64,000 nucleotides of DNA from Candidatus Acidiferrales bacterium (GTDB lineage: Bacteria; Acidobacteriota; Terriglobia; Acidiferrales; 2-02-FULL-67-57), in the NCBI GenBank assembly GCA_965247455.1, contig CBDFHE010000003.1, positions 3,332-67,331 on the forward strand. Reading direction: 5' to 3'. The translations under genes were made by a program, and so were the position numbers. This document shows positions 10,716 through 44,779 of this stretch, piece by piece. A model generated the notes under the pieces. That model did not search any database. It saw nothing but the letters and a program-made list of their open reading frames with translations, and was not told the origin of the DNA. The first letter of the stretch is position 1, and the number at the start of each line of letters is the position of its first letter.

Positions 10716-12583
10716 ATAGTCCGCCCACAGATCGATTCGGGCTCAGCCCTAAGGCATTCTCCACGGCCTTCCCGTTTCACCTCGTGGTTGACCACGACAT
10801 GAACCTCTTGCAGGCTGGGCCGGGGATGCGCGGTCTGCTGCCCGGTCTATCTGTGGGAGACAGCTTCTCTCACCACTTCCGGATTCAGCGTCCCGAGGGG
10901 CCGTTGACGTTCGAGGCGATACAGCATCACACACAATCGGTTTTTCTTCTCAACGCGATTTCCGTGGAGGGTCTGGTGCTGAAGGGGCAGATGGTGCCTA
11001 TCGAAGAGGAGCACGTGATCGTCTTCCTCGGATCTCCATGGGTCACCACCGTAGAGGATGTGGCACAGCTTGGCCTCTCCTTGAAGGACTTTGCGGTTCA
11101 CGATTCGATCAGCGACTATCTCTTTCTCATCCAGACCCAGACCACATCTCTGGCGGATGCCAGTCGACTTTCCGGGGAACTCAAGGAACTAAACCGAAGA
11201 CTGGAGTCCCGAGTTGAGGAACGCACTTGGGAGCTCTCGTCGGCGAACGAGGAGTTGAACGCCCAGACGAACGAGCTGGCGAGAGCCAACGAGCTATTGA
11301 ATGTGGAACTGAGCGAGCGCAAGCGAGCGGAGGAAGAAATCCGAAGACTGAACCAAGACCTGGAGCAGCGGGTGGTCGAGCGCACGGGAGAACTGCGCGA
11401 GAGCGAGGAGCGGTTCCGGCAAGCGCAGAAGATGGAAGCGGTGGGGCGGCTGGCAGGCGGCGTGGCCCACGACTTCAACAACCTCCTCATGGTCATGCGG
11501 GGCTACGGCGAGCTGCTGTTGAACCGGCTGGACGCTAACGATCCGCTGCGGCGCAACGCCGAGGAAATCCAGAAAGCCGCTGAGCGCGCCACCGCGCTCA
11601 CCCAGCAACTGCTGGCCTTCAGCCGCAAGCAGGTGCTGCAGCCCAAGGTGCTGGACCTGAACGCTGTGGTCACCGAGGTGGAGAAGATGCTGCGGCGGCT
11701 GATTGGGGAGGACATCGAGCTGGCGGCGGTATTGGATCTGGCGCTGGGACGGGTGAAAGCCGACCCGGGCCAGATGGAGCAGATCATCCTGAACCTGGCG
11801 GTCAACGCGCGCGATGCCATGCCGCGGGGCGGGCGACTCACCCTCAAGACCGCTAACGTCACCCTGGACCAAGCCTATGCCTATGCCCGCCAGCACGTGG
11901 GCGCCGCGCCCGGGCCCTACGTGCTGCTGGCGGTGAGCGACACCGGCATCGGGATGGACGCCGAGACGCGCTCCCACATCTTCGAGCCCTTCTTCACCAC
12001 CAAGGGCGCGGGCAAAGGCACCGGGCTGGGCCTTTCCACCGTCTATGGAATCGTCAAGCAAAGTGGCGGGACCCTCTGGGTGGAGAGCGCGCCTGGCCGG
12101 GGCACGACCTTCGAGATTTATCTTCCGCTGGTGGAGGAAGTAGCCGCCGGCGGAGAGCTCCACCCCGCGCTCCCCGCTCCTACTCCCGGGGGGACGGAAA
12201 CCATCCTGGTGGTGGAGGATGAGATGAGCGTTCGGAAACTCGCCGCTGAGTTCCTGGGAAGCAACGGCTACACGGTGCTGGAGGCGCAGGACGGTGGAGA
12301 GGCTCTGCAAGTGTGCGAAGAGCACCGGGCGCCGATCCACCTGCTGCTAACCGACGTGGTGATGCCGGGGATGAGCGGCTGGGAGTTGGCCGAGCGCTTG
12401 GCGGGAGCGCGGCCGGAGATGAAGGTGACCTACATGTCGGGCTACACCGACGACGCCATTGTCCAGCATGGCGTCCTGGAAGAGGGGACCGCTTTCCTCC
12501 AGAAGCCCTTCTCGCTGGATGCGCTGGCGCGCACCGTGCGCGAGGTGCTGGAGGCGGGAAGAGGGAATAATCTTTCCCAATAG
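10712..12583 (+). CDS. HNOBA-domain hybrid sensor histidine kinase with receiver domain
   Basis: The N-terminus ([20 protein letters not shown]...[42 protein letters not shown]) resembles the HNOBA domain of soluble guanylate cyclases. It is followed by a coiled coil, HisKA, HATPase_c and REC. The ATGA start overlaps the H-NOX stop. Confidence 0.85.
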
Positions 12584-12696
12584 TTTCTCAACCTTCCCCT
12601 CAGTCCAACACCTTGCGCTCCGCCCCCCGCTTCCAACACCTCCTGCGCCGCCCGCCTGCGGACGGGCAGGCATGAACTTCCCGGAAAACTAAGCTG

Positions 12697-13902
12697 CTAG
12701 GCCAGCGCCTGCTTGAGGTCGGCGAGCAGGTCGGCGGCATCCTCCACGCCAATCGAGAGCCGCACCGTCCCCGGCGACACGCCCACCGCCGCCAACTCTT
12801 CGCGCGACATGTGGTGGTGGGAGGTATAAATAGGCAGCACTGCCAGCGACTCCACCCCGCCCAGCGACACCGCCAGTAGGAACACCCGAATCCGGTTGCC
12901 GAACCGCCGCGCCGCCCCCAGCCCGCCCTTCAGGTCGAAGGCCAGCATTGCGCCGAACCCGCTCATCTGCCGCCGCGCCAGGGCGTGGTCGGGGTGCGAG
13001 CGCAGCCCCGGGTAGTGCACCCGCGCCACCTTCGGATGCCGCTCCAAGAACCGCGCCACCGCCAGTGCATTGGCCGCCTGCCGCCGCATCCGCGTCTCCA
13101 GCGTTTTCATTCCGCGAATTAGCAGGTAGCCCGCCACCGGGTCGAGCGACCCGCCCAGCTTGATCATGGTGTGCCGAATCTTTTCCACCAGCTTCGCCCG
13201 CCCGGCCACCGCTCCGGCGATGATGTCCGAGTGCCCGCCCAGGTACTTGGTCGCGCTGTGGCACACCACATCGAAACCTAGCGTCAGCGGCCGTTGCAGC
13301 ACCGGCGTAGCGAAGGTGTTGTCCACCGCGCTCACCAGCCCCAGGCGCCGCGCCAGCGCCGCCGCTTTGCGCAGGTCAACAATTTGCAAGGTCGGGTTGG
13401 TGGGCGTTTCGGTATAGAGCAGGCGCGTCCGGGGCGTCACCCGCGCCTCCACCCCGCGCAAGTCGCTCTCCACAAAGTGCACCTTGATGCCGAAGCGCGG
13501 CAGCAGGTCCCGCATCAGCCGATACGTCCCGCCGTAGAGCCGCCGGGTGGCGATGATCTCCTCGCCCGCGCCCACGAAGGTCAGCAGCGTAGTGGATATC
13601 GCCGCCATGCCCGACGCGGTCACCAGCCCCGCCTCGCCTTCTTCCAGCGCTGCCAGCTTGGCCTCCGCCACCCGCAGCGTGGGGTTGCCGTAGCGGGTGT
13701 AGATGTCGGCCTTCGAGCGCCCTTCGGCCCAGCGCTTCATCTCCTCTACGCTGGCGAAGGTGAAGGTGGCTGATTGCACCACCGGCGACACCACCGGCCC
13801 GCCCACTCCGTGCCGACTTTCGCCCACGTGCACCGCCCGCGTCGCCATACCTGCCTGCGTTCCTGTCCGGCTTTTTCGGCCACCTGTTTTTGTGCGCGCC
13901 AT
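12697..13902 (-). CDS. Cys/Met-metabolism PLP-dependent enzyme (cystathionine gamma-synthase / beta-lyase / methionine gamma-lyase family)
   Basis: Conserved blocks include YTRYGNPT, VDNTFATP and the PLP-lysine region HSATKYLGGHSD. The start is set at MARTKTGG (13902); the second Met at 13848 is also possible. The longer 571 aa ORF extension looks non-coding. Confidence 0.85.
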   Translation of the reverse strand: MARTKTGGRKSRTGTQAGMATRAVHVGESRHGVGGPVVSPVVQSATFTFASVEEMKRWAEGRSKADIYTRYGNPTLRVAEAKLAALEEGEAGLVTASGMAAISTTLLTFVGAGEEIIATRRLYGGTYRLMRDLLPRFGIKVHFVESDLRGVEARVTPRTRLLYTETPTNPTLQIVDLRKAAALARRLGLVSAVDNTFATPVLQRPLTLGFDVVCHSATKYLGGHSDIIAGAVAGRAKLVEKIRHTMIKLGGSLDPVAGYLLIRGMKTLETRMRRQAANALAVARFLERHPKVARVHYPGLRSHPDHALARRQMSGFGAMLAFDLKGGLGAARRFGNRIRVFLLAVSLGGVESLAVLPIYTSHHHMSREELAAVGVSPGTVRLSIGVEDAADLLADLKQALA

Positions 13903-17185: not shown

Positions 17186-20100
17186 GACTTTGCTACCGGT
17201 TTTCCTAGGAGTTTGTTGATCTGTGCCAGCAGATTGACTTTCCAGGGCGTTTCCTTCTGGAAGAAAGCATGCGTCTCCCGGCACAGCAGACGCACCTCGC
17301 TCTCCTGCATGTCTTGCAGGTCTTTGCTGGTCAGAACGAAAATCGGAATGTTGCGTTTGTCCTCGTCCTGTTTGAGGCGGCGGATCAGCTCAAACCCGTC
17401 CATCCCCGGCATCATCAAATCCACCAGGATGCCATCCGGTCGCGTTCGCTCCAGGATTGCCAGCGCTTCCTGGCCGCCGGGCGCCGCCAGCGGCGAGTAG
17501 CCCACCTCCGTCAGCACTTCCGTCATCAGTTGCAGCGTCGCCGGGTCGTCGTCCACCACCAGCAAGGTCAGGCGCTTGCCGGCTCCGTCCGGCAGTTGCT
17601 TGCGGATCGCCTTCACCAGCAGGTCCTTGTCCACCGGTTTCACTAGGTAGTCCGCCGCCCCCAGGTTGAGGCTCGGGTCCTGATCCATCCCGGAGACCAT
17701 GATGACCGGAATCTCGCCCGTCTCCCGATGCTGCTTCAATTCGTAGAGTGTCTCCCAACCGGTTTTGCCGGGCATCACAATGTTGAGCGTGATGACGTCG
17801 GGGCGAAGTTCTCGCGCCGCTGCCAGCGCTTCCGTGCCCGACCGCACCGCCCGCACCGTATAACCTTCCGGCTCCAGGAAGCTCACCAGCAGCTCGCGGG
17901 TGGCGAGTTCATTATCTACCACCAGCACCAGCGGTCGCTCGCGCCCGGTGGAGGCGACCACAATCTCCGGCTCGGCTTCCGCCGGCGTTTGCACCACCGG
18001 CAAAGTGAAACTGAAACGGCTGCCCTTTCCCGGCTCGCTGTCCACCCAGATTTCCCCCCCGTGTTGCTCTACCAGGCGCTTGCTGATAGCCAGCCCCAGG
18101 CCGGTGCCTTCCTTGACGCCCCGGGTAGTCTCTCCCACTTGGCGGAATTCGCCGAAGACGGCGGCCCGATCCTCGGGTCGGATGCCCACGCCGGTGTCGC
18201 TCACCGTGATGCGCGCTACACCGCGGGAAATCAAGGACTCAATCCGTACCTCCCCGCTCCCCGGTGTGAATTTGACCGCGTTGCTGAGCAGGTTGTAGAG
18301 GATTTGCTTGAAGCGAACCCGGTCGGCGTAGATCGCCATCTCCTCGCCCACCGTGGTTACCAGTTGGATGTACTTGGACTGGGCCAGCGGGGTGATGGTG
18401 GAGAGCACCTCCTGCAGCGCTTCCGCCGCGCGGAAGCTCTCCGGGTTGAGCTGCAACTGGCCGGCTTCGATCTTGGACAGATCCAGAATGTCGTTGATGA
18501 GTTGCAGCAGGTGGCGCGAGGCTTTCAGCATGTGCCCGACAAAGCGCTTCTGCTTCTGGTTCAGGGGCCCTGGTTTTTCTCCCGCCAGCAGGTCGGAAAA
18601 TCCGATGATGGCGTTCAAGGGTGTGCGCAGCTCGTGGCTCATGCTGGCCAGGAATCGGTTTTTCAGTTGCGTCGCCTGCTGCAATTCCTGGTTCTGAAGC
18701 TCTTGCTCATACTTTTGCTGCTCGATTCGGCGCCGCGCCAGCTCCAGTTCCTCCACCAGGTTGGCCAGCTCCGCCGAATGTTGTTCCTGTGCGCCCTGGG
18801 CGGCTTCCAGGTCTTGGGCATAGCGGGTTAACTCCTCCTCGGCGCGCTTGCGCTCGGTGATGTCGGTGATGGTGCCGACGTAGCCTACGATTTCTCCGTC
18901 CTCCCCCTTCTCAGCCACCGCCTGCCCAAACACCCAGGTCACCACCCCGTCGGGGCGTCGGAAGCGATACTCGGAGTGAAGCTGTGAGCCCTCTCGGGCA
19001 ATTCGGTGCCATTCCGCGAACACGCGCTCGCGGTCCTCGGGGTGAATCGCCCGCGCCCAGCCTTCTCCGCGCGCCTCCTCCGGCGTCAGACCCGCAATCT
19101 CGCACCAGCGCTGGTTGACGTAGGTGCAGTTCCCGTCCGCATTGGTGCGGAAGATACCCACCGGCGACACCGTCGTCAAAGTTTGGAACAGCTTCTGGCT
19201 CTCGCGCAGTTCTCCCGTGCGCTCGACTACGCGCTGCTCCAGTTCTTGGTTCAGTCTTCGGATTTCCTCCTCCGCCTGCTTGCGCTCGGTAATGTCGAGG
19301 ATGGAGTGAACCACTCGGCCCAGGGTCTGCTCGTAGCCCGGAACCGCCGACCAGTGCACCGCAAGATTCTTGATCTTGCCTTTCAAGGTTCTCCCGACTG
19401 TCTCAGCTCTGAAGTTTGTTTCCCCTTGGGAAATGGCGACCAATTCCTTGCCAAAACTTTTGTAGGACTCGTCAATGAAGGTCGGCCCCGCCTTCCCCAA
19501 CAAGCTCTCTTGGGTGGGGGCTTCGAACAACTCCGCCATCGGGCGGTTCACGTCAACGGCTTTCACCAGCGCCAAGCACCTCGCCACCTCGTCCGGATTG
19601 TCGCTCAAGTAGTTCTCTAAGTTGTTGCTGCCCGCAGCGCGCAACTCCTCAAGCCGCTTCTTGACCGCGGAGAAATCCTGCACGCACAAGGGAATGGGCG
19701 AGTCTTCAAAGAAACGCCGGTAGCGCTCTTCGCTGGCCCGCAGCGCCTCCTCCGCCCGCTTGCGCTCGGTGATGTCCTCAACAACGCAGCTCACTCCTAT
19801 GACGGTGCCGTCGTGGGACTTGACCGCATAATAGTTGTGCTGGTAGTGCCTTTTTACGCCCGGCTGAGCCATGGTCTCCGCCTCGACTGTCCCTCCCTCG
19901 ATCGGATGCCCGGTTTCAATCACGTGGCGGAGCTGCGATTCGACGCCCGCCGCCACGCCCGGAAGCAGCTCGGCGACTGTCCGCCCCAGGTGTCCCTCCG
20001 CCGGGATCCCATTGATCGCGGCAAGCCACTCATTGATGTAGAGGTATCGTAAGTCTGTGTCCAAATAGCAGAGACCTATCGGCGCCTCTCTGTAAATACG

Positions 20101-33336: not shown

Positions 33337-33741
33337 ATGCACACGGTCAAGACAAAGGGCGAATCGAACAGAGCATCACTCTTGGAGAAAGAACTGACCG
33401 AGAAAATCCTTGGCGCTGCTTTCAAAGTACAGAACACGCTCGGCAGTGGCTTCTTGGAGAAAGTCTATGAGAACGCGATGGTGGTTGAGCTGAGCCGGAT
33501 GGGCGTCCCGGTTGAACAACAGAAACCGCTTCAAGTCCGATATGAGGGAACACTCGTTGGGGACTATCAAGCAGATTTGGTTGTTGACGGTCGGGTTATC
33601 GTGGAACTCAAGACGGCGAGTAAACTCGACTCAATCCATGAGGCTCAGTTGCTGAATTATCTGAAGGCAACCCGTGTTCGTGTCGGGCTTCTGTTCAACT
33701 TTGGCTGCCCAAGACTACAATACCGGCGTTTCGTCGTTTAA
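33337..33741 (+). CDS. GxxExxY protein (PD-(D/E)XK nuclease-like fold family)
   Basis: Contains the GFLEKVYENAM motif, followed by ADLVVDGRVIVELK and EAQLLNYLK. Confidence 0.8.
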   Translation: MHTVKTKGESNRASLLEKELTEKILGAAFKVQNTLGSGFLEKVYENAMVVELSRMGVPVEQQKPLQVRYEGTLVGDYQADLVVDGRVIVELKTASKLDSIHEAQLLNYLKATRVRVGLLFNFGCPRLQYRRFVV

Positions 33742-34381: not shown

Positions 34382-35344
34382 ATGAAAGTCCTTTTCTGTG
34401 GAACACCGGAGTTTGCCGTGCCCACGCTCGAGGCTATTCACGGCGCGGGGCACTCCCTCCTTGCCGTGGTGACCCAACCCGACCGGCCCCGCGGGCGGGG
34501 AATGAAATTGGCGGCACCGCCGGTAAAAGCGGCGGCGGAGAAACTTGGCCTCACGGTCGAGCAGCCGGAAAAACTGCGCGGCCAAGCGGGGCAAAAGCTG
34601 CTGCAAAGCTACCGCCCGGAGGTGGTGGTGATTGTCGGCTACGGGCAGATTATTCCCGCCGATCTGTTGACCTTGCCGCCGCAGGGTTGGATCAACTTGC
34701 ACGCGTCCTTGCTGCCCAAGTATCGCGGCGCCGCCCCGGTGCAGTGGGCGCTCATCCGCGGGGAAACCCGGACCGGCGTGACCACCATGCAGATTGACCA
34801 GGGCATGGACACCGGCCCGGTCTTACTCCAACAGGAAGTTTCCATCGGCCCCGAAGACACCAGCGTGACGCTGGCAGAGCGGCTGGCAGGGATGGGCGCA
34901 GACCTGATGCTGCGCACGCTGGCCGGGCTTGCGCAAGGCAGCCTGGCGCCGCGCCCGCAGGATCACTCCCAGGCTTCCAAGGCTCCGCTGCTCAAGAAAG
35001 AAGACGGTCGGGTGAGTTGGTCCTGGACGGCGGAGGAGATTTACAACCGCATCCGCGGCCTGCTGCCCTGGCCCGGCGCCTACACCGGTTTTCGTGGGCA
35101 GGTGTTGCGCTTGTGGTGGGCGCGGCCGGTGGCGGCGCCGGCGGGCGTGGTCACCACACCCGCGCCGGGAACCTTGCTGGTGGAAAAGCACGAGTTGTAT
35201 GTGGCGTGTTCTCCCGATGCGACGGGGGAGGGAACCTGGCTCCGCCTGAAAGAAGTCCAGTTGGCGGGTCGCAAGCGCGTGGCGGCGGCGGACTTCATCA
35301 ACGGCCTGCACGTGAAGAGCGGGGAAAAGCTAGAAACCACCTAG
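34382..35344 (+). CDS. fmt: Methionyl-tRNA formyltransferase
   Basis: MKVLFCGTPEFAVPTL.., NLHASLLPKYRGAAP and the position immediately downstream of def. Confidence 0.9.
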   Translation: MKVLFCGTPEFAVPTLEAIHGAGHSLLAVVTQPDRPRGRGMKLAAPPVKAAAEKLGLTVEQPEKLRGQAGQKLLQSYRPEVVVIVGYGQIIPADLLTLPPQGWINLHASLLPKYRGAAPVQWALIRGETRTGVTTMQIDQGMDTGPVLLQQEVSIGPEDTSVTLAERLAGMGADLMLRTLAGLAQGSLAPRPQDHSQASKAPLLKKEDGRVSWSWTAEEIYNRIRGLLPWPGAYTGFRGQVLRLWWARPVAAPAGVVTTPAPGTLLVEKHELYVACSPDATGEGTWLRLKEVQLAGRKRVAAADFINGLHVKSGEKLETT

Positions 35345-35492
35345 CGCCACAATAACGGCTTCTGGGTTCGGCAACCAGAGGCCCTTCCTGCTGTCTCGAA
35401 AACCTTGAGTTAACCGCGCCCCCAATTGTTTGATAGAGCGCTGCTTGGGTACCCCAACTCCAGTGTGTGAAAACCACAACGTTCCGGCACAG
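35271..35492 (+). repeat. Direct repeat copy A (last ~24 fmt codons plus ~150 bp downstream)
   Basis: Colinear without indels with 42026-42247. Roughly 10 mismatches in the first ~200 bp by eye, degenerating over the last ~20 bp. Confidence 0.85.
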
Positions 35493-35752: not shown

Positions 35753-36358
35753 ATGAAACGGATAGTTTTTCTGTTGGTTGTGTCGTTGTTCGCTTTGCCT
35801 GCAACAGATAGTTTCGCAAAAACAAAACTCACCAAGGCCAAGACAAAAGCGCAGCGCTTGGTGGACAAACAATTGGACCGCATCACCGCCGGGAGTACCC
35901 ACGTGAATGAGGCTTCGGACGCGAGCGGGGGCGCCATCGTCGGAAACTCCTCTACGGCAAGCATCAAGAAGACGGGGAACGTAGAACTGGACGGTGGAGC
36001 CCAGCAAGATGCCCGGGCCCTCAACTTGGTGAACGCAGCCGAGAGCGGCGTGGCCAATGGCGTCAACGTGTGGGACGGGCGCCTGGACAGCCAAACCGCA
36101 GAAACCGAACTCAACGTCAATCAGGAAAACCTCATCCTTCAGAACCAAGCTCGCTCGGCCAGTGTGCCGGAGTATGTGCGGCCTGAAGCCAATGTGGATG
36201 AGACGTTCAATTCAACGCGGGACACAACCAATACAGGAAGTGTCAACACTCTCATCGCGATTCTCGGCCAAGAAATCCGAGCCGGGAAGGGCTTCGCGGG
36301 AGCGGGGTCGATCGGCCTGGACATTGATGGCGGGAGCATCGAGGTCACGAACGACTTA
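35753..36358 (+). pseudogene. Secreted repeat-motif protein P1, 5-prime fragment (IS-interrupted)
   Basis: A signal peptide, then the LVDKQLDRITAG motif. It is a paralogue of 38559-39590 and is cut after ..IEVTNDL by the IS. Confidence 0.75.
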
Positions 36359-38029
36359 ACCCGGATTTCCGATTTGGCTGTGGTACCGTATCGCCAGGAC
36401 CAGTCGCTGCGCCTTGAGTTTTGGGGCTCCGACGTAAGGAACCACACTACGGAGGGTGACACCCGGTGGGTGAATTACAACACGAGCCATTCCAGTTCGC
36501 GTTCAACGGCTTCTTGAAAGTCGCGTTCCAGGGATCGCGCGTCACTTCTGACGCTGGCCTCATTCTGGTGCGCGAGTTGGATGAACGTCTGGGGCTGGAG
36601 ACACTCATCGCCGAGCACCTGAGCGATTCCCGACAGGGGATGAACACCCAGTTCAGCGTGGTGGATCTCCTGCGGCAGTCGGTCTACAGTCGCCTCGCGG
36701 GCTACGAAGATCTCAACGACGCGGGGCGCGTGTCGGCAGACCCAACATTTCGTCTCATCGGGTCGCCAAAGCGCTGGGACCGGGGTGCGGCGCTGACATC
36801 GACGCTGCATTGGTTCGAGACAGAGCTGCTGACCCACGAGGAGAATCTCGTCGGGTTGAGGGCCGTGAACCGGGAGGTGCTTGCACAGGCCGAGATGGCG
36901 ACGCGCGCCGACCGGATCGTGCTCGACATGGATTCGAGCGAGAGCCCGGTGCATGGGGCGCAGGAAGGGAGCGCCTATAACGGGCACTTCGAGTCCGTCT
37001 GCTACCACCCGCTGTTTCTGTTCACCGAGCATGGGGACTGCCTCGCCGCCACGCTGCGGCCAGGCAACGTGCATAGCGCCGACGACTGGGACGACCTGCT
37101 CGTACCGGAGATTGACCGGCAGCAGGTGGAGGGCAAGCGCGTAGCGTTCCGCGCAGACGCCGCGTTCGCGAAGCCCGAGATCTACGACGCGCTCGAGCAG
37201 CGCGACGTGGACTATGCCATTCGCATGCCGGCGAACAAGAGCTTGGAGCTGGAAATCGAAGACATCCTCTTTCGTCCGCCGGGACGGCCGAGCTGCAAGC
37301 CCTTGGTGCGCTACCAGAGTTTCCGCTATCAGGCCAAGAGCTGGACCACGCCCAGACGGATCGTCGCCAAGGTGGAGCACCACCAAGGTGAGCTGTTCCC
37401 TCGCGTCGGCTTCATCGTGACCAACACGGCCCTCCCGAGCCGCTCGGTCGTGCGGTTTTACAACAAGCGCGGTACGGCGGAGCAATGGATCAAGGAAGGC
37501 AAGCAGGCCACCCACTGGACGCGGCTGTCGTGCCATCGTTTCCGGGCGAACGAGGTGCGCCTGCAACTGAGCGTCCTGGCCTACAATCTGGGCAACTTGT
37601 GGCGCAGACTGGTCCTTCCGCTGCGGGTCAAGCGCTGGTCGCTCACGAGTCTCCAGCAGCGACTGGTGAAAACTGGGGGCCGGCTGGTGAAGCATGCGCG
37701 GTACTACTGGCTTCTGCTGGCGGAAGGGCATCTCACGCGGCGGCTGTTCGGCGACATGCTGCGGAGGATCTGGGCGCTACCCGTGCCGGCAGGCTGACGC
37801 GCGGCCTGAAGTGCAACGAAGCCCGCCCGGCGATGACACGGGGCACACGTGTGGAGCGGTGTCTGAGAAATGCCCGAAAAGCAGGGGTTCCAGTCGGTCG
37901 CACGTCGGCGCGGGCTCAGATGAAGGCCTTTGAAGCTGAACGATTGTGCGACGATCGAAGTTTTTGTGCGATCGGCGGCGATCGGGTGTATAAACGTGCC
38001 ATCAGGGGCAGGCAAAACGGAAATCCCGG
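36359..38029 (+). mobile_element. IS1380-family-like insertion sequence, copy 2 (1671 bp, 4 bp target duplication CTTA)
   Basis: Same length and ends as copy 1, with at least 3 nucleotide differences seen. CTTA is present at 36355-36358 and 38030-38033. Confidence 0.85.
36466..37797 (+). CDS. DDE transposase, IS1380-family-like
   Basis: 443 aa, with one residue different from the 7260-8591 copy. Confidence 0.85.
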   Translation: MGELQHEPFQFAFNGFLKVAFQGSRVTSDAGLILVRELDERLGLETLIAEHLSDSRQGMNTQFSVVDLLRQSVYSRLAGYEDLNDAGRVSADPTFRLIGSPKRWDRGAALTSTLHWFETELLTHEENLVGLRAVNREVLAQAEMATRADRIVLDMDSSESPVHGAQEGSAYNGHFESVCYHPLFLFTEHGDCLAATLRPGNVHSADDWDDLLVPEIDRQQVEGKRVAFRADAAFAKPEIYDALEQRDVDYAIRMPANKSLELEIEDILFRPPGRPSCKPLVRYQSFRYQAKSWTTPRRIVAKVEHHQGELFPRVGFIVTNTALPSRSVVRFYNKRGTAEQWIKEGKQATHWTRLSCHRFRANEVRLQLSVLAYNLGNLWRRLVLPLRVKRWSLTSLQQRLVKTGGRLVKHARYYWLLLAEGHLTRRLFGDMLRRIWALPVPAG

Positions 38030-38492
38030 CTTAAGTGTTTCCGTGTCTGCCGAGGCAGGCGCTGACATCGGGTTTGGGCTCATCAGCGGGGGTGTGGAGA
38101 TAACCGCCGACGCAACCACTAGCCAAACTTTGACCTGGATCCTGCCGGACCTGAGCTTTACTGCTGATGGTGTGATATGTGCTGTGGCCATGGGATCCTG
38201 CGATTCGGAGGGGACCGACAGCAGCACATCCAGCGGCACTCTAAGCGTGCGGTCGCCTTTTGCGCTCTATGGTGCTCAAGGCGAGTACATCGTGGTGGAC
38301 GACTCCGAGCTCGAAGTTGAAACCGATTACTCCGTGCTCCTCACTAGCAACGCACAGCAGAACGTGCGGGCGCTGAACCTGGTCAATGCCGCCGGAAGCG
38401 TGGTGGCAAACGCCGTTAACGTGTCCCGGACGCCGACGGTGGGCCCGGTCCTGAACCTGACACAGAGCAATGTGATCATCCAGCGGCGCTAA
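38030..38492 (+). pseudogene. Secreted repeat-motif protein P1, 3-prime fragment
   Basis: After removing the IS and one CTTA copy, ..TNDL joins SVSVSAEAGADIG.. in frame, giving a 354 aa product. The C-terminus aligns with that of P2. Confidence 0.75.
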
Positions 38493-38558
38493 AACCAGCT
38501 TCCCCGAAGGGGGCTGGAGAAGATCGCAGCCGCCGGCACACGGCGGCAATCGCAAAGG

Positions 38559-39590
38559 ATGATCATGCGAAGTGTCTACCTCTTGGTCGGCGCTTTGGTC
38601 CTGGCGCACGGCGGGCAGGCTTTCGGGCAGTCGCGTCCTCTGACCGATGTCCAGATGGCCCGCATCACCGCCGGGCATACCGAAGCAGGCGGTGAAAGGC
38701 GCAGCGGCGTCATTGTTGGGAACTCCTCGACCGCGACGTTGCGGCCCACCGCCATCATTGACCTCAAGGGCTCGGCTCAGAAGGGGAGCCGAGCCCTGAA
38801 CATGGTCAATTCCGCCCAGAGCAGCGTAGCCAACGGGATAAACGTGTGGGATGGGAGGCTGGCGGGGATGGCTGCCGAGGCCCAGTTCAACGTCGGTCAG
38901 GCGAACCTCGTGTTCCAGGACCAGCGCCGCTCCTCCCACCTGGGCGAGTGGAAGCTGGAAGGAATCAATCTGGATGAATCCTTCCAGCAGACCCGCTCGA
39001 TCACTTCTCAAGCCCAGGTAGTTCCCGCATTCTTGCTGACAACCATCCCAATCGGGGTGGGGTTTGCGGGCGCGGGCACGTTTACTGCCGACATTGGTGC
39101 CGGAGCAGTTAGCATCGACTCCGTCATCAGCACCACGGTTACAACCACGGAAGAAAGCTGCGTCTTTTTCGGGACAATCTGCCACACAGACACGGAATCA
39201 GAAACGCGCACGGAAACAGTTACGGGGAGTGTGAGTTTACCCCCTATTTCCATGCAGGTTGTGGACGGCTCGGCGTGCCTGGTCGTCTTCGGGACATGCT
39301 CGATCACCGCATCCCTCTCCAGCACTTCGGAGGGGAGCCGGACGATTCTCGTCCCGGCCAGCATGACCGAGGCCGAAGCCGAATACATTGTGATGAGCGA
39401 TGGAACGCTGGATGTCGAGACGGACTATTCTGTGCTCCTCTCGGACTTCGCCCAGGAAGACATCCGAGTCTTGAATGGAGTGAATGCGGCCGGCAGCGTG
39501 GTGGCGAACGCCGTGAACGTCTCGCGGGCAGGAACGATGAGCTCAGTTCTCAACCTAACGCAACGCAACTTTATCACTCAGCGCCAATGA
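38559..39590 (+). CDS. Secreted repeat-motif protein P2 (candidate substrate/fibre subunit)
   Basis: 343 aa. Signal peptide ..HGGQAFG, then LTDVQMARITAG. The motifs ALNMVNSAQSSVANGINVWDG (N-terminal) and LNGVNAAGSVVANAVNVSR (C-terminal) flank a Thr/Ser-rich core containing two C-x6-C pairs. Confidence 0.75.
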   Translation: MIMRSVYLLVGALVLAHGGQAFGQSRPLTDVQMARITAGHTEAGGERRSGVIVGNSSTATLRPTAIIDLKGSAQKGSRALNMVNSAQSSVANGINVWDGRLAGMAAEAQFNVGQANLVFQDQRRSSHLGEWKLEGINLDESFQQTRSITSQAQVVPAFLLTTIPIGVGFAGAGTFTADIGAGAVSIDSVISTTVTTTEESCVFFGTICHTDTESETRTETVTGSVSLPPISMQVVDGSACLVVFGTCSITASLSSTSEGSRTILVPASMTEAEAEYIVMSDGTLDVETDYSVLLSDFAQEDIRVLNGVNAAGSVVANAVNVSRAGTMSSVLNLTQRNFITQRQ

Positions 39591-39622
39591 TCAGAGATTC
39601 CTGGCAGAAAATGAGGTGAATC

Positions 39623-40024
39623 ATGAAACGCATTCTTCTTCTCTCCCTGGCAGGCTTACTGCTCTTCGGAGCGGTGAGCCCGGCCGGGGCGGAGGGACGC
39701 AAACTCAGTGACGAGGAGTTGGACCAGGTCACCGCCGCCGGGGTTTGGACCGAGGTGGTGGACGGCGTGGTCAGGTTTCATTTCGAAGGCCGCGCCGGGC
39801 GCTCCCACACCGTAAATGGCAGCGGAACCATCGAGCTGCTGGAGGCGGAGCTTCCGCCCAGCGCCGCCATCCTCATCCTGCGCGACAACGCTCAAGGGAA
39901 TCTGCGTTCTCTCATCAACGTCAACGCGGTCAATTCTCTCATCCAGGTGCTCGTCAATCTGAACATCAACATCAACTCCACCGTCGGCAGCGTGCAGCAG
40001 ATCAACCTGTCAAAAGAGTTCTAG
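39623..40024 (+). CDS. Small secreted paralogue P3 (candidate minor subunit/nucleator)
   Basis: 133 aa. Signal peptide ..SPAGA, then LSDEELDQVTAAG. The C-terminus is Asn/Val/Leu-rich (LRSLINVNAVNSLIQVLVNLNININSTVGSVQQINLS). Confidence 0.7.
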   Translation: MKRILLLSLAGLLLFGAVSPAGAEGRKLSDEELDQVTAAGVWTEVVDGVVRFHFEGRAGRSHTVNGSGTIELLEAELPPSAAILILRDNAQGNLRSLINVNAVNSLIQVLVNLNININSTVGSVQQINLSKEF

Positions 40025-40026
40025 CT

Positions 40027-40725
40027 GTGAGAAACTGCTGCCCCGCCATTCTAGCGCTCGCACCGGTGCTCGCTCTGGCCGGAGCATCCCCGGCCTCGGC
40101 GCAGCGCCTGCCCCTCAGCTTGGGCGGGGTCAGAGCCACTACGGCTGTCCAATCCTTGCAGGAGATCCGTCAGGCCCGCATCGTGCGTCAGCGCTGGGAC
40201 CTCAGTTGCGGGTCGGCGGCGTTGAGCACGCTTTTGACCTATGACCTTAGCGACCCCACACCCGAGACCGCGGTAGTGGTTTGGGTGCTGCACCGGACCG
40301 ACCCGGTGCGCGTCCGATCCCGGGGAGGGTTTTCCCTCCTGGACCTAAAGCGGTTTGTCCAGTTTCGCGGGTACAACGCGGAAGGGTATGCCGACCTCAG
40401 TCTGGACGAACTGGCGGGGCTGGGTGGGGCGGCCATCGTCCCGATCCGGATCAAAAGCTACGACCACTTTGTGGTGTTTCGTGGTGTGATGGGCGGCCGA
40501 GTGATCCTGGCCGACCCGACTTTCGGCAATTTGACCATGGCAGTGGAGCGGTTCCTCAAAATCTGGAAGAACGGCATCGGGTTCGTCGTGCTTCCCCGGA
40601 AGCCCTCTTCCGCTCCCGGCCAAGCGGCTGCGCGGGCCGAGAAATTACCCTTTCCCGACGTTGGCTCCATCTATCGGGGGCTGCGCGCAGGTGGCCTCGC
40701 TCCCCTGACTCGGCGGTCCCCCTAA
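40027..40725 (+). CDS. Standalone periplasmic C39-like cysteine peptidase
   Basis: GTG start 2 nt after the P3 stop, with signal peptide ..ALAGASPASA. Candidate catalytic residues are Cys in QRWDLSCGSAALSTLLTY and His/Asp in YDHFVVFRG...VILADP. There is no ABC transporter domain. Confidence 0.75.
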   Translation: MRNCCPAILALAPVLALAGASPASAQRLPLSLGGVRATTAVQSLQEIRQARIVRQRWDLSCGSAALSTLLTYDLSDPTPETAVVVWVLHRTDPVRVRSRGGFSLLDLKRFVQFRGYNAEGYADLSLDELAGLGGAAIVPIRIKSYDHFVVFRGVMGGRVILADPTFGNLTMAVERFLKIWKNGIGFVVLPRKPSSAPGQAAARAEKLPFPDVGSIYRGLRAGGLAPLTRRSP

Positions 40726-40728
40726 GAC

Positions 40729-41913
40729 ATGATTCGACGCTGGTCCAAAACGGAGAGTGTCTCGCGAGCGCTCATCCTTCTGCTTCTTCTCGCGGCCGGG
40801 ACCCCAGTGGTGCGCGCAGATGATCAAGATGACAAGATCAAAAAGCTCCGGGAAGCCTTGCAACAGCGTGACCAAGTGATTCTCGACCTCCTCCGGCGCG
40901 TGGAAGCGCTGGAGCGGAAAGTCCAAGGACTGAGCGCTTTTTCTACCTCTCCCACAACGGCGAAAGCCAGCAAACCTTCCGAACAAGACCCGGTGCCTCC
41001 CCGGGCGGGAGAGTACGACGAAGAGGAGCGGCTGGCCCAAGCCGCCTTGGAGCGCACCCTGATCCAAAAAGGCGGCCTGCTGCTGCCTCCTTGGACGCTC
41101 GAAATTGAGCAGAGTTTCACCTACTTCAATTCCTCGTCGGATGTCATCAGCATCGACGGGTTCGCGATTTTCCCGGTTCTGGTGGTGGGAGACATTGTCT
41201 CGGAGCGCGTGCGCCGCGACATTCTCCTGCCCGCCTTCACCACCCGGCTGGGTCTGCCGGGGAATTTCCAGTTTGACGTCCGGGTACCGGTCGGGTATGA
41301 GGTGGAACGAACCGTGACAGCGGACGAGCAAGAGCGAAAGCGGAGCATCTTTGCGTTAGGCGACATAGAGTTCGGGTTGTCCCGTCAACTCATGCGGCAG
41401 CGGGGAGCACGGCCCAACCTGCTGGCCGGCTTCCGCTGGAAAACCGTCACCGGGCCCGACCCGTTTGCCCTGGCCTCCACCACACCGGCGCCGGGAACCG
41501 GCTTCCGCAGTTGGCAGGCAACGTTGACGGCGGTCAAGGTGCGCGACCCGGTGGTGTTTTTCGGTGGCTTCTCCTACACCAACAACCTAGCTGCCAGCAA
41601 GCCGGTGGGCCGTATCAACCCCGGCAACTCGTGGGGGTACCAGCTTGGCTTGGCCCTGGCGCTGAACCTGGAGTCCTCCATCAGTTTCGGCTGGGATCAA
41701 CAGTTCGCCGGGCGGACGTCCCTGGACGGCGGTTCAGTACCCGGATCCTTTCTCTCCACGGGAACTTTCCGCGTGGGCAGTTCCTACGTGCTGGCGCCGG
41801 GACGCTCGGTGGATGTGGGCCTCGGGATCGGCCTCACCCGGGATGTTCCCGACTTTCAGTTTAGCTTTGCTTTGCCCTTCCGCTGGGTTCTGCGCTCGCG
41901 CGCCGCCCGCTAG
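40729..41913 (+). CDS. Outer-membrane protein with an N-terminal coiled coil, disordered linker and beta-barrel (FapF-like architecture)
   Basis: Signal peptide ..GTPVVRA, then heptad-like KIKKLREALQQRDQVILDLLRRVEALERKVQGL. This is followed by the S/T/P-rich linker and then amphipathic beta-strand patterns ending ..FQFSFALPFRW. Confidence 0.7.
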   Translation: MIRRWSKTESVSRALILLLLLAAGTPVVRADDQDDKIKKLREALQQRDQVILDLLRRVEALERKVQGLSAFSTSPTTAKASKPSEQDPVPPRAGEYDEEERLAQAALERTLIQKGGLLLPPWTLEIEQSFTYFNSSSDVISIDGFAIFPVLVVGDIVSERVRRDILLPAFTTRLGLPGNFQFDVRVPVGYEVERTVTADEQERKRSIFALGDIEFGLSRQLMRQRGARPNLLAGFRWKTVTGPDPFALASTTPAPGTGFRSWQATLTAVKVRDPVVFFGGFSYTNNLAASKPVGRINPGNSWGYQLGLALALNLESSISFGWDQQFAGRTSLDGGSVPGSFLSTGTFRVGSSYVLAPGRSVDVGLGIGLTRDVPDFQFSFALPFRWVLRSRAAR

Positions 41914-41915
41914 CA

Positions 41916-41937
41916 GTCTTTGGTCTCACACAAAGAC
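41916..41937 (+). terminator. Weak terminator-like hairpin after the OMP gene
   Basis: 7 bp stem gtctttg/caaagac with an 8 nt loop, 3 nt after the stop codon. There is no clear T-run. Confidence 0.3.
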
Positions 41938-42025
41938 CTCAGCACTTCTTTCAATCGACGCTCCACGAAGACAACCTCCGAGCTCCATTTCGGTTAGACC
42001 GTGCCGAAACCATTTCCTTTCTGGC

Positions 42026-42247
42026 GCAAGCGCGTGGCGGCGGCGGACTTTATCAACGGCCTGCACCTGAAGAGCGGGGAAAGGCTAGAAACCACCTAGC
42101 GCCACCATCACGGCCTCTGGGTTCGGCAACCAGAGGCCCTTCCTGCTGTCTCGAAAACCTTGAGTTAACCGCGCCCCCAATTGCTTGATAGAGCGCTGCT
42201 TGGGTACCCCAACTCTGGTGTGTGAAAACTACATGCCTTTGGCACAG
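42026..42247 (+). repeat. Direct repeat copy B (pseudo-3-prime end of fmt)
   Basis: Encodes ..RVAAADFINGLHLKSGERLETT*, compared with authentic ..RVAAADFINGLHVKSGEKLETT*. It then follows the same downstream sequence as copy A. Confidence 0.85.
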
Positions 42248-42464
42248 CGGTACGGAGATCCAGCGCGGGCTCACGCAGCCACTTGCTTGGCTACCCCAGG
42301 CCAGACAAGCCGAATCGGTCCCGCCGGGGAGGGCCACAATGACCGGAGGCAGGTCCACCACCGGTGCCCGCATCCGTGCTTCCTTCGCGACTCTTGCCAA
42401 ACCTCCTTGTAGGCTCAACCGCCCAGCCGTTTACAATCTACTGAAAAAGAAGCGAATATAGTTC

Positions 42465-42512
42465 TTGACAGCCACTCAGTTCATGGTAGTATATATTAGT
42501 CTAATAAGACTA
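42465..42512 (+). promoter_or_regulatory. Candidate promoter plus palindromic operator upstream of the ParB-like gene
   Basis: TTGACA at 42465-42470, with an AT-rich -10 candidate (tagtat/agtata) 16-17 nt downstream. The palindrome TAGTCT-aata-AGACTA lies at 42497-42512. Confidence 0.4.
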
Positions 42513-42535
42513 TATTAAACTATAAGAGACCAACA

Positions 42536-43573
42536 ATGACTAAGACAATCCAGGCCCCCGAGAAAACGAACGAACTCACCATCCGCATCGGCAACCGGGA
42601 CTTTGTGCTAGAGCGCAAACAGGTGCCTATTTCCTTCCTGAAGCTCGATCCTTCCAACCAGCGCCTTAGCTATCAACTGACCCAGCTCCGCAAGCAGGGT
42701 AAGGTCGGGACGGATGCGCAGCTTCATGAACTGCTCTGGTCCATGGACGCCGTCAAGGATCTCTACCAAAGTGTGCTCCGAAATGGCGGGCTGATGCACG
42801 ACCCTTTCCTCAAAAGTGAAGGCCTCGTAGTCGAAGGCAACTGCCGCACCGTTGTGCTCCGTGAGCTCCACAAGAAGTATCCAAAGGAAGAGCGGTTCGC
42901 AAAGGTCTATGTCCAGATTCTTCCGGGAAACTTTTCGGAGGAGCAGCTTGTTAAGCTCCTCGGTGAACTGCACATCGCAGGTAAGATCGAGTGGCGCGCC
43001 TATGAACGGGCAGAGTATGTCTGGAAGATGAACAAGCAGTTTGCGAAGACTTACGACTTTCTGACTGCTCACCTTCGGTGGCCGAGGGCCAAGATCGCTC
43101 AAAAAATTGCAGCCTATGAAGAAACCAATATCTACCTCGCGGAGACGGCTGATCCACAGGGTATCAACCGATTCTCACACTTCGAGGAATTCATGAAGAA
43201 GAAGGAACTCCGCGAGAAGCGGAGTAAAGACCCTCAATTCATGAAGAACTTTCGCAAGTGGGTATTCGTCGGGAAATTCCCGGACGCCAAGCATGTCAGA
43301 ATCTTCCCCGACGTTCTGGCTAACCAGCGCGCTATGAAGGAGTTCGAGCGCAAAGACATACGCACGGCCGAACGAGTATTGAACGAGACGGACCCCGCGA
43401 GGAGCTCTGACTACTATTGGAGCATGGCGCAAACCACGCAGCAACTTAGGAATACACCACTGTCGGAAGTGAACGACCTCAGGAACGGCAACGGTGCGAA
43501 GGTCGAAAAACTGCGCGATCTCTATCGTGCCCTACTGGACGTCGCTAAGACTGCGGGCGTATCCTTGAGCTAG
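42536..43573 (+). CDS. ParB/Srx-fold N-terminal domain protein (ParB-like nuclease/NTPase domain)
   Basis: ISFLKLDPSNQR and VVEGNCRTVVLREL resemble the ParB N-terminal box motifs. The gene is AT-richer than the surrounding core genes. Confidence 0.55.
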   Translation: MTKTIQAPEKTNELTIRIGNRDFVLERKQVPISFLKLDPSNQRLSYQLTQLRKQGKVGTDAQLHELLWSMDAVKDLYQSVLRNGGLMHDPFLKSEGLVVEGNCRTVVLRELHKKYPKEERFAKVYVQILPGNFSEEQLVKLLGELHIAGKIEWRAYERAEYVWKMNKQFAKTYDFLTAHLRWPRAKIAQKIAAYEETNIYLAETADPQGINRFSHFEEFMKKKELREKRSKDPQFMKNFRKWVFVGKFPDAKHVRIFPDVLANQRAMKEFERKDIRTAERVLNETDPARSSDYYWSMAQTTQQLRNTPLSEVNDLRNGNGAKVEKLRDLYRALLDVAKTAGVSLS

Positions 43574-43626
43574 TCGGCGATCATCTGCTCTCGGCTTTGC
43601 AGTACGCATGCCAGCACGGAGGCACC

Positions 43627-43859
43627 ATGGAAGATCGTATCATCGCTCGGTTGCGGAAGAGTGAAATCGAGGAGATCGTCATAGCTCTTCGCACGTATCA
43701 AGGGAATGAATTTGCGGATTTTCGCATCTTCTTCGGCGCACGTGGACAAGAGACACGGCCAACGAAGAAAGGATCACGATCCCCCTCGAACTATACAGCG
43801 AATTTCGTCGGTCCATAGAACTGCTGGACGGCGAAATGGCCAAGGAAGGTTGGTCCTAG
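43627..43859 (+). pseudogene. PC4/p15-like small ssDNA-binding protein with a 1-nt deletion near 43774
   Basis: MEDRIIARLRKSEIEEIVIALRTYQGNEFADFRIFF..RPTKKG, then in the -1 frame ITIPLELYSEFRRSIELLDGEMAKEGWS*. The span is 233 nt, one short of 78 codons. Confidence 0.5.
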
Positions 43860-44080
43860 TAGCAGCCTAAAAAGAAGGCAAACCGAACCAACAGGATAGC
43901 AATTTAGAACCGAACTCCGGAACCAGGGGCTGCCTGTAGCCTTTGGGTCGCGTTTCCACCAGCGACTTAGCGACGTGGCCTCGGCCCGGAAACCCACGGG
44001 GGCGGGTCAGGTGATGAACATCACGGAAAAGAATCAGCCGCCGTGATGTGCTAGAATGGCAGCAGCTCGAGGGGGAAGGA

Positions 44081-44779
44081 ATGAGGGTAGCGCGAGCCAA
44101 AGAGGGGGTGGAGATAGCGCCGTCAATTTTGGCGGCGGACTTTGCCCGTCTGGGCGAGCAGATCGTCGAGCTCAAGCAAGCGGGCTGCACCCTGCTGCAC
44201 GTGGACGTGATGGACGGGCACTTCGTGCCCAACATCACCATCGGCCTTCCAGTGGTGGCTTCCCTGCGCAAGGCAACCGATCTGGCGCTTGACTGCCATC
44301 TAATGATTGCGGAGCCCGACCGCTTCGTTGAGCGCTTCGCGGAGGCGGGCGCGGACATGATTTCGGTCCACCAGGAAGCGACGCCGCACCTGGATCGGAC
44401 GCTGGAAGTCATTCGGGCCGCCGGCGCGCAGGCCGGCGTGGCCTTGAACCCCGCCACCCCGGTGGCGACGCTGAGCGAAGTGCTGGGGACGCTGGATTTC
44501 GTACTGGTCATGTCGGTCAATCCCGGTTTCAGCGGACAAGAGTTCCTTCCCGGCGCGCTGGAAAAGATACGCCAGCTCAGCGAGTGGCGGGCGGCGCAGG
44601 GAGCAGATTTTCGTATTGAAGTGGATGGCGGAATTGGGGTAAAAACGATTGAAGCGGTTGTACGCGCGGGGGCTGACGTTGTGGTTGCCGCCAGCGCCAT
44701 CTTCCACACTTCCAATCCGCGCGCCAGCTTTGAGCAACTGCGGAGGGCGGCTTCGCTGGCGACCGCCACCAAAGTCTAA
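44081..44779 (+). CDS. rpe: Ribulose-phosphate 3-epimerase
   Basis: IAPSILAADF, HVDVMDGHFVPN, MSVNPGFSGQ and VDGG. The start is chosen at the ATG after SD gggggaagga and an extended -10 (TGcTAGAAT, 44049-44057). Confidence 0.85.
   Translation: MRVARAKEGVEIAPSILAADFARLGEQIVELKQAGCTLLHVDVMDGHFVPNITIGLPVVASLRKATDLALDCHLMIAEPDRFVERFAEAGADMISVHQEATPHLDRTLEVIRAAGAQAGVALNPATPVATLSEVLGTLDFVLVMSVNPGFSGQEFLPGALEKIRQLSEWRAAQGADFRIEVDGGIGVKTIEAVVRAGADVVVAASAIFHTSNPRASFEQLRRAASLATATKV

Follow-up and report, generated by a model that had tools for sequence, protein, structure and literature searches.

We examined a 64,000-nucleotide stretch of the Candidatus Acidiferrales contig CBDFHE010000003.1, hereafter the window, in which five same-strand open reading frames (ORFs) sit between fmt (34382-35344) and rpe (44048-44779); window coordinates throughout are positions of this whole stretch. 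The five genes encode, in order, three putative cargo proteins (P1, P2 and P3), a stand-alone C39 peptidase and a FapF-type outer-membrane channel (Table 1). Their shared orientation and their separation by gaps of 66, 32, 2 and 3 bp, both described in a first-pass annotation made from the sequence alone, were recovered from the ORF coordinates. All five products open with a hydrophobic, signal-like segment, and a scan for promoters and terminators returned counts no higher than those in shuffled sequence. A C39 peptidase with a Sec signal, a FapF-like channel and adjoining genes for secreted cargo make up a FapD/FapF-type module in the broad sense, and sequence comparison places the cluster in this export class, together with Fap, Fil and Nap.

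Peptidase and channel

The product of the fourth gene was recognised by the Pfam model Peptidase_C39 (PF03412; 1.1e-10, 41.9 bits against a gathering cut-off of 22). Among NCBIfam models the best match was FilB (2.9e-32), and FapD also matched (5.3e-28), with both scores lying under the equivalog cut-offs (112 bits versus 475 for FilB, 97.8 bits versus 330 for FapD). The hydrophobic N-terminus, which ends in ASA directly before Q, is a Sec signal of the peptidase's own. The first-pass annotation had described a C39-like protein with its own signal and no ATP-binding cassette (ABC) domain, and accordingly the ORF list, Pfam and NCBIfam gave neither an ABC nor a transmembrane domain within the 232 residues, nor any ABC transporter gene in the cassette. 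In an alignment with the C39 domain of a peptidase-containing ABC transporter (PCAT; 6mpz), Q55, C61, H147 and D163 coincide with its catalytic residues, and each is at least 90% conserved over 17 related peptidases. The Cys in LSCGSAAL, the His in YDHFVV and the Asp in ILADP, nominated earlier as catalytic, are thereby confirmed in this role at the level of alignment and conservation.

The channel matched the NCBIfam FapF model almost from end to end, with model positions 30-418 of 420 aligned to residues 34-384 (1.4e-28), at a score of 99.9 bits against an equivalog cut-off of 700. Residues 126-384 also matched the FapF crystal chains 5o65 and 5o67 (1.2e-23), and the match to NCBIfam FilC was weaker and confined to the barrel (7.8e-12, 45 bits versus 630). 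Reading the sequence from the signal onwards, we found an unbroken heptad run with 3-4 spacing (I37-L40-L44-R47-I51-L54-V58-L61-V65-L68), then an S/T/P-rich linker, a conserved helix-like segment in the plug region and a beta-barrel (residues ~126-384). Rouse et al. described the same domain order for FapF (PMC5557850), and the FapF-like architecture proposed for this protein at first pass therefore stands on both the full-length model and the crystal-chain matches. At the junction of plug helix and barrel lies K114-G115-G116 (41068-41076) followed by LL; G116 and the LL pair are conserved among the 17 channel relatives. Rouse et al. raised, as a speculation, the possibility that FapF is itself cut by FapD, at GG motifs close to this junction (PMC5557850).

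Table 1 Features of the cassette and its borders in the window.
Feature	Position	Strand	Basis
Left copy of ~222-bp direct repeat (last ~75 bp of fmt and downstream DNA)	35270..35492	.	blastn, alignment with right copy and with the empty site of L029/L027
P1, 5' part, residues 1-202 (Sec signal, leader, N-module)	35753..36359	+	ORF list, in-frame reconstruction
P1 leader LVDKQLDRITAG, double-glycine-type spacing	35858..35893	+	motif scan, family conservation
IS1380-family element inside P1, 1670 bp	36360..38029	+	inverted repeats, transposase profiles, target duplication
P1, 3' part (core with Cys pair, then C-module)	38035..38492	+	
P2, intact large cargo protein, 343 aa	38559..39590	+	
P2 leader LTDVQMARITAG	38640..38675	+	motif scan, family conservation
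P2 N-module, residues 49-121	38703..38921	+	hhalign against C-module
P2 C-module, residues 274-342	39378..39584	+	hhalign against N-module
P3, small cargo paralogue, 133 aa (Sec signal, leader, one module)	39623..40024	+	
P3 leader LSDEELDQVTAAG	39704..39742	+	motif scan, family conservation
Stand-alone C39 peptidase, GTG start, 232 aa	40027..40725	+	
Catalytic codons of the peptidase	Q55 40189, C61 40207, H147 40465, D163 40513	+	alignment to 6mpz
FapF-type outer-membrane channel, 394 aa	40729..41913	+	
Channel coiled coil, residues 37-68	40837-40932	+	heptads read from sequence
Right copy of ~222-bp direct repeat (other border of inserted segment)	42025..42247	.	blastn, alignment

Cargo proteins and their leader

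The paralogy of P1, P2 and P3 noted at first pass was upheld by BLASTP and hhalign. P1 and P2 share 43% identity (E 4e-87), and P3 matches the C-terminal module of both at about 1e-5 in BLASTP and at 98% in hhalign. P2 starts with a Sec signal and a leader, after which come an N-module, a variable Thr/Ser-rich core and a C-module; the core holds a pair of cysteines (C240 and C247) that is nearly invariant. The two end modules are themselves homologous (hhalign 99.3%, E 7e-21), such that a module of about 70 residues is present twice in P1 and P2 and once in P3 (hhalign 93%). Over 67 aligned sequences, every invariant column is Asn or Gln (N95, Q114, N116, Q299, N320, Q335 and N337). Family representatives also include proteins in which the unit is multiplied: P0016 is a fusion of two whole units in frame, P0017 of four, and in P0020 (1159 aa) a single signal-plus-leader precedes 15 modules in tandem, which repeat every 67-90 residues. 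The multi-unit fusions, of two to four complete P units, have no internal leaders, and P0016, P0017, P0019 and P0020 all belong to these tandem or fused types. Because the invariant positions are exclusively Asn or Gln and the modules occur in tandem arrays, a beta-solenoid or amyloid nature of the cargo is plausible on sequence grounds.

The family is rare, at about 300 clusters at 50% identity. A word-indexed search of 5.8 billion proteins returned 15 relatives, and a hidden Markov model (HMM) scan of 1.84 billion cluster representatives returned 304 at E <=1e-3 and 115 at <=1e-30; in RefSeq, members carry the label 'hypothetical protein'. P1, P2 and P3 matched no Pfam or NCBIfam model, including those for FapB, FapC, FapE and FilA, and Pfam scans of 14 cargo-family members likewise assigned no family. 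As a positive control, the NCBIfam FapB, FapC, FapE and FilA models detected the proteins fetched from Aeromonas and Acinetobacter, and the negative result for the cargo is therefore meaningful. Against NF058557 and NF058558, the models for the FapB/FapC amyloid subunits, whose three repeats are imperfect, P1-P3 gave nothing at E up to 1, whereas Aeromonas FapB and FapC do match. Profile comparison by hhalign gave a probability of <=1.3% for the cargo family versus FapB/FapC, and when the family or its modules were compared with Aeromonas FapB, FapC and FapE and Acinetobacter FilA, only a leader segment of 15-28 residues aligned. The P3 family did match a 104-residue Polymorphobacter protein at 91% in hhalign, over the signal-plus-leader region only; this match vanished when the module was used alone and was therefore not counted as a link to Fap repeats. 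A curli-like system was rejected as well, there being neither Csg machinery nor sequence similarity. HMMER and hhalign thus agree with the earlier judgement that the cargo is not recognisable as FapB, FapC, FapE or curli-like.

We modelled the structure of P2 with AlphaFold2 (AF2). An alignment of 14 sequences gave an unusable model (predicted local distance difference test score, pLDDT, 39), and the 67-sequence alignment was used instead. The resulting model is all-beta (pLDDT 79.6, predicted template modelling score, pTM, 0.52), with leader residues 30-36 predicted as helical, each module as a hairpin plus a third strand, and core hairpins of up to 20 residues. Foldseek searches of this model against PDB and BFVD returned no significant neighbour (template modelling score, TM, <=0.13; E >=3e-3); the weak top matches were beta-pore-forming toxins with long hairpins.

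Double-glycine leaders of bacteriocins follow the consensus LSxxELxxIxGG, in which positions -12, -7 and -4 are characteristically spaced ahead of two small residues at -2/-1. Directly after the Sec signal, the cargo proteins carry a segment with the consensus L-(S/T)-D-x-(E/Q)-L-D-x-(I/V)-T-A-G, which keeps this spacing: positions -12, -7 and -4 are hydrophobic, and the small residues at -2/-1 are A-G instead of G-G. It is present in 45 of 45 P-family proteins from the window and the fetched loci, and three positions are uniform in character (-12 L/M, -7 L/M and -4 V/I, 45 each). The remaining positions are frequent rather than fixed: -10 D in 31, -6 D in 32, -3 T in 37, -2 A in 42 and -1 G in 36 of the 45, with S/T/D at -11 and E/Q/D at -8. 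Among 646 other ORFs of the same loci, which served as controls, the strict pattern occurred within the first 110 residues of only two, and a looser version was found in 80 of 94 full-length family representatives. The propeptide remaining after the predicted signal-peptidase cut would be 16-25 residues long, a normal leader length. A GG-type leader behind the Sec signal, first proposed from three proteins, is thus strongly backed by its conservation.

Similar motifs occur in the cargo of related operons. In FilA of A. baumannii, MDDAALSAATGQ comes after the Sec signal and repeats the pattern of the P leader. Leader-like motifs are also found in FapE-like proteins of Polymorphobacter (ITDYELATMRGG) and Croceicoccus (LSEEVLARQRGG) and in Aeromonas FapE (LADGELAHLRGR); in the FapE-like protein of Cupriavidus the motif, ARLEESRGG, lies about 130 residues past the signal and not directly behind it. 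The Polymorphobacter, Croceicoccus and Cupriavidus proteins contain a canonical ...RGG, and the motif is not in the Aeromonas FapB and FapC that we examined. A leader-like motif in FapE agrees with the published N-terminal processing of FapE and with the requirement for the catalytic Cys of FapD in secretion (PMC5557850). By its sequence distribution, the leader pattern may be general for the FapD/FapF-type export class.

Within other operons that pair a C39 peptidase with a FapF-type channel, carriers of a leader-like motif comprise FilA, FapE-like proteins and some small proteins. Among our fetched loci (numbered L001 onwards, with positions within each locus), these are L021 4526-5368 (FilA), L026 6843-7559, L020 6000-6647, L025 6952-7710 and 5956-6270, and L023 5985-7355 and 5019-5507.

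Relatives, insertion and decay of the cassette

Scanning genomes with the cargo-family alignment yielded 14 loci, and metagenomic contigs added five more. The 14 loci are mostly gammaproteobacterial, with one locus each from Desulfobacteraceae and Terriglobia; those from Gammaproteobacteria lie in Pseudomonadales metagenome-assembled genomes, Ectothiorhodospira haloalkaliphila ATCC 51935 and Marinobacter iranensis 71-i, of which the latter two are named isolates with intact cassettes (at least two such isolates in all). The cassette type is found chiefly in Gammaproteobacteria. Each complete locus in the set L001-L017 and L019 has one gene order, namely one to three large P genes, a small P gene, the peptidase and the channel, and in total this order is kept in 17 loci beyond the window. 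In complete loci the large P proteins span 340-625 aa and the small, P3-like proteins 130-160 aa, and a P3-like gene stands directly upstream of the peptidase gene in all related loci. Flanking genes are unrelated between loci, and no immunity-like gene is conserved in the cassette. Other genomes thus carry P genes, peptidase and channel together and in conserved order, a co-occurrence the absence of which would have counted against the first-pass reading. Peptidases and channels of this set matched those of the window at 1e-46 to 1e-111, as against 1e-13 to 1e-47 for those of Fap, Fil and other operons; because of this difference we regard them, by sequence, as a separate subfamily that is accompanied by a cargo of its own.

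Two FapF-like matches fall outside this set. The best one in a plasmid collection, at 33% identity, lies on a chromid of Indioceanicola profundi (L022, 6524-11960); it has no adjacent C39 peptidase gene on the same strand, and the products of the next genes start like type II secretion pseudopilins, which may reflect a different use of the FapF-type barrel. A FapF-like match in Vibrio likewise has no adjacent same-strand C39 peptidase gene and was not used.

A report of 2017 introduced export through FapF with FapD as a hybrid type of secretion that was then new (PMC5557850), and Fil fimbriae (PMC3498257, PMC11784438) and the Nap island of Neisseria (PMC11798529) rely on export of this type too. 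Surface fibres are the product of both Fap and Fil (PMC5557850, PMC3498257). The published Fap work did not settle what the C39 peptidase cleaves or which site it recognises, the Fap proteins being reported to have no canonical C39 sites (PMC5557850, PMC6173800). Judged by sequence, the present cassette is neither a Fap nor a Fil operon, because the equivalog cut-offs are not reached and FapA/B/C/E and FilA/D/E/F are absent. It shares with Fap a Sec-exported stand-alone C39 peptidase adjoining a channel with signal, putatively trimerising coiled coil, linker, plug and barrel (FapD/FapF), several paralogous secreted repeat proteins encoded upstream, and cargo with Asn/Gln-rich repeats and a conserved Cys pair; the L..EL...RGG motif in FapE-like proteins of related operons resembles the P leader. 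It differs from Fap in having no FapA and no FapE between the peptidase and channel genes (which are 3 bp apart, with no match to the FapE model and a 15-residue leader segment as all that hhalign aligned), and in carrying a leader on every cargo protein, whereas Aeromonas FapB and FapC have none. Common ground with Fil consists of the peptidase, for which FilB is the best NCBIfam match, the FapF-type barrel of FilC, the MDDAALSAATGQ leader of FilA and, on the Fil side, visible surface fibres (PMC3498257). In contrast to Fil, the cassette contains no FilD-, FilE- or FilF-like genes, the FilA model gives no match with the P family, for which hhalign against FilA stays at <=2% beyond the leader, and the FilC match covers the barrel only.

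The Nap system, compared by description only, is similarly a compact, horizontally acquired island with a C39 peptidase (NapP), a FapF homologue (NapF) and cargo bearing a double-glycine motif (NapA-C) (PMC11798529). Its cargo comprises cationic peptides of <10 kDa that promote autolysis, whereas the cargo here consists of modular, predicted beta proteins of 133-354 aa. PCAT-dependent export of double-glycine substrates shares the catalytic Q/C/H/D and the leader pattern L(-12), S/T(-11), E/Q(-8), L(-7), I/V(-4) with a small -2/-1 pair. In the cassette, by comparison, the peptidase is periplasmic, with its own signal and without ABC or transmembrane domains, the leader stands behind a Sec signal and ends in A-G, and the outer-membrane route is a FapF-type barrel rather than TolC. 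In the curli proteins CsgA and CsgB, the most conserved residues are Asn and Gln, which form ladders in a beta-solenoid amyloid. Curli and the P proteins have in common that they are secreted repeat proteins in which Asn/Gln are most conserved; they differ in that their sequences are not similar, the P module has about 70 residues rather than about 22, and curli machinery consists of CsgG/E/F.

The suggestion that the gene combination was uncharacterised holds in part. The cargo family and the cassette are new, whereas fapD/fapF pairs beyond Proteobacteria had already been noted in 2018, when co-localised homologues without other fap genes were reported in five additional phyla (PMC6173800). 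What is new is the cargo family with its module, the near-canonical leader behind the Sec signal on every cargo protein and the conserved large/small/peptidase/channel arrangement. The machinery class was already known, and the cassette is not a new principle.

The cassette reached its present site by insertion. We draw this conclusion because a direct repeat of about 222 bp that includes the end of fmt brackets it, and because two relatives, L027 and L029 (94% nucleotide identity in fmt and rpe), have an empty site in which fmt, one reverse-strand gene and rpe follow one another. The inserted segment inferred at first pass is thus corroborated by cassette-free genomes. P1 is disrupted by an insertion sequence (IS) of the IS1380 family, which ends in 21-bp inverted repeats (36360-36380 and 38009-38029) and encodes a transposase (36466-37797; Pfam DDE_Tnp_1_4 4.6e-117, NCBIfam IS1380 1.4e-108). 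A CTTAA target duplication lies on both sides (36355-36359 and 38030-38034). With the element removed, 35753-36359 joined to 38035-38492 gives an in-frame P1 of 354 aa. The relatives L018 (99.7% nucleotide identity) and L019 (95%) carry an intact 354-aa orthologue and have no IS1380 element at the same site. The first-pass reading of P1 as an IS-disrupted gene was therefore correct. All five cassette genes are intact in L019; in L018, where the cassette occupies the same site, IS3-family elements stand in place of the peptidase gene's 3' part, the channel gene and the right border. The copy in the window is a horizontally acquired, decaying one.

At least two copies of one IS3-family element (genes of 92 and 271 aa) are present in L018, the closest relative, at 11700-13750 and 18650-19800; one of them takes the place of the lost part of the cassette, and two closely related genomes thus show the cassette hit independently by different IS families. 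Two further spots near the cassette vary between strains. To its right, window positions 42246-43858 form a stretch of low GC content (0.54 versus about 0.62) with a 345-aa ORF (42536-43573, + strand) that has no Pfam family and a partial PADLOC match to PDC-M38A, a candidate defence protein (7.5e-10). L027 and L029 carry a different, reverse-strand gene of 281-314 aa at this position, and we therefore take it as a second variable spot. Between aroC and def, the window (at 33337-33741) and L018 both have a PDDEXK_3 (GxxExxY-type) gene; because L027 and L028 have no such gene there, it is another small strain-specific insertion.

Proposed mechanism and alternatives

The homology and features of genes 4 and 5, the modular cargo family, the conserved leader, the gene order, the insertion and the decay are observations; cleavage at A-G, export through the channel and polymerisation are inferences. 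We propose that the cluster is a horizontally acquired hybrid export cassette of FapD/FapF type, with its own cargo family, whose cargo is cleaved at the leader, exported through the channel and assembled into a surface polymer, a reading to which we give a probability of roughly 0.55. P1, P2 and P3 would pass the inner membrane via Sec and lose their signals to signal peptidase I, as their sequences suggest. This would expose an N-terminal propeptide of 16-25 residues that acts as a double-glycine-type leader (L-12, L-7, I/V-4, A-G at -2/-1). The motif, the conservation of the catalytic residues and the strict gene linkage point to the periplasmic C39 peptidase as the protein that would recognise this amphipathic leader and cut after A-G. 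Cleavage would be coupled to passage of the unfolded protein through a trimeric FapF-like channel, whose periplasmic coiled coil and plug would gate export; such passage has been demonstrated experimentally for FapF (PMC5557850). Outside the cell, the Asn/Gln-ladder modules of about 70 residues at the ends of P1 and P2 may stack with their neighbours into a beta-rich fibre or matrix, with the one-module P3 serving as nucleator, cap or anchor. Stacking of this kind is suggested by the module homology, the tandem arrays, the fusions and the fibre-forming relatives Fap and Fil.

A bolder version, which we advance tentatively and consider rather doubtful, extends this proposal in two ways. It holds that the general FapD/FapF export signal consists of a Sec signal with a double-glycine-type leader behind it, that removal of this leader by the periplasmic C39 peptidase licenses passage through the channel, and that the Asn/Gln module is a new amyloid or beta-solenoid block, in which N- and C-modules of neighbouring subunits would join head to tail and P3 would nucleate or cap.

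Several points weigh against the proposed export and assembly. The cargo has no homology to FapB, FapC, FapE or FilA that sequence comparison could detect. Cleavage after A-G is a prediction because the -2/-1 pair is not a canonical G-G, G-A or G-S, and the leader could also stay on the protein, as a helix for targeting or for binding a chaperone. The predicted P2 monomer shows long hairpins and no obvious solenoid, at a low pTM of 0.52 and with no structural neighbour. With IS1380 in P1 of the window's copy and IS3 elements in L018, the cassette is undergoing IS-driven erosion in the host lineage; the insertion in the first gene is probably polar on the downstream genes, and the cassette may be poorly expressed or non-functional in this organism.

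It is unlikely, in our estimate, that the P proteins are monomeric, anchored surface proteins of adhesin or surface-layer type, for which the leader would be no more than a targeting or chaperone signal. Non-cleaving C39-like substrate chaperones do exist (PMC5557850), the AF2 monomer of P2 folds alone with moderate confidence, and the variable Thr/Ser-rich core with its conserved Cys pair could form an exposed binding surface. Real proteolysis is argued for, however, because the full catalytic set is kept in all 17 peptidase relatives, and a one-module P3 and tandem arrays are hard to fit with a monomeric adhesin. A second possibility keeps the same export route and takes the P proteins as secreted soluble effectors, that is toxins or bacteriocin-like or autolysis factors, as in Nap (PMC11798529); we consider it quite improbable. 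Double-glycine-type leaders are typical of bacteriocins, and the top Foldseek matches are beta-pore-forming toxins, although these matches are weak and not significant. Yet the large P proteins, at 340-625 aa, are not peptides, an immunity-like gene is not part of the conserved cassette, and homologous end modules, 15-copy arrays and multi-unit fusions fit stacking better than a toxin.

That the barrel is instead an uptake channel for hydrophobic compounds of the COG4313/MetA type, with a peptidase and P neighbourhood of no functional meaning, we regard as very improbable. FapF is structurally related to this uptake family (PMC6173800), and the channel has a sub-threshold match to Pfam Phenol_MetA_deg (8.9e-4, 19.8 bits versus 22). 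Against this stand the full-length FapF match, which extends over the coiled coil and the plug, regions absent from uptake channels, and the strict co-occurrence and order with the peptidase and P genes in all complete loci.

Returning to the proposed cleavage, export and assembly, the cassette offers a sharp, conserved candidate cleavage site on every cargo protein for the open question of what FapD-class peptidases act on, and makes the idea that leader cleavage gates outer-membrane export testable in a five-gene operon. If the bolder version is true, the cassette, with a near-canonical leader on every cargo protein, would be the cleanest natural case and would settle what FapD-class peptidases cleave. 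Its cargo adds an unannotated family of secreted, modular, predicted beta proteins that spans Gammaproteobacteria, Desulfobacterota and Acidobacteriota, and that may represent a hitherto undescribed type of surface fibre or of matrix component in biofilms.

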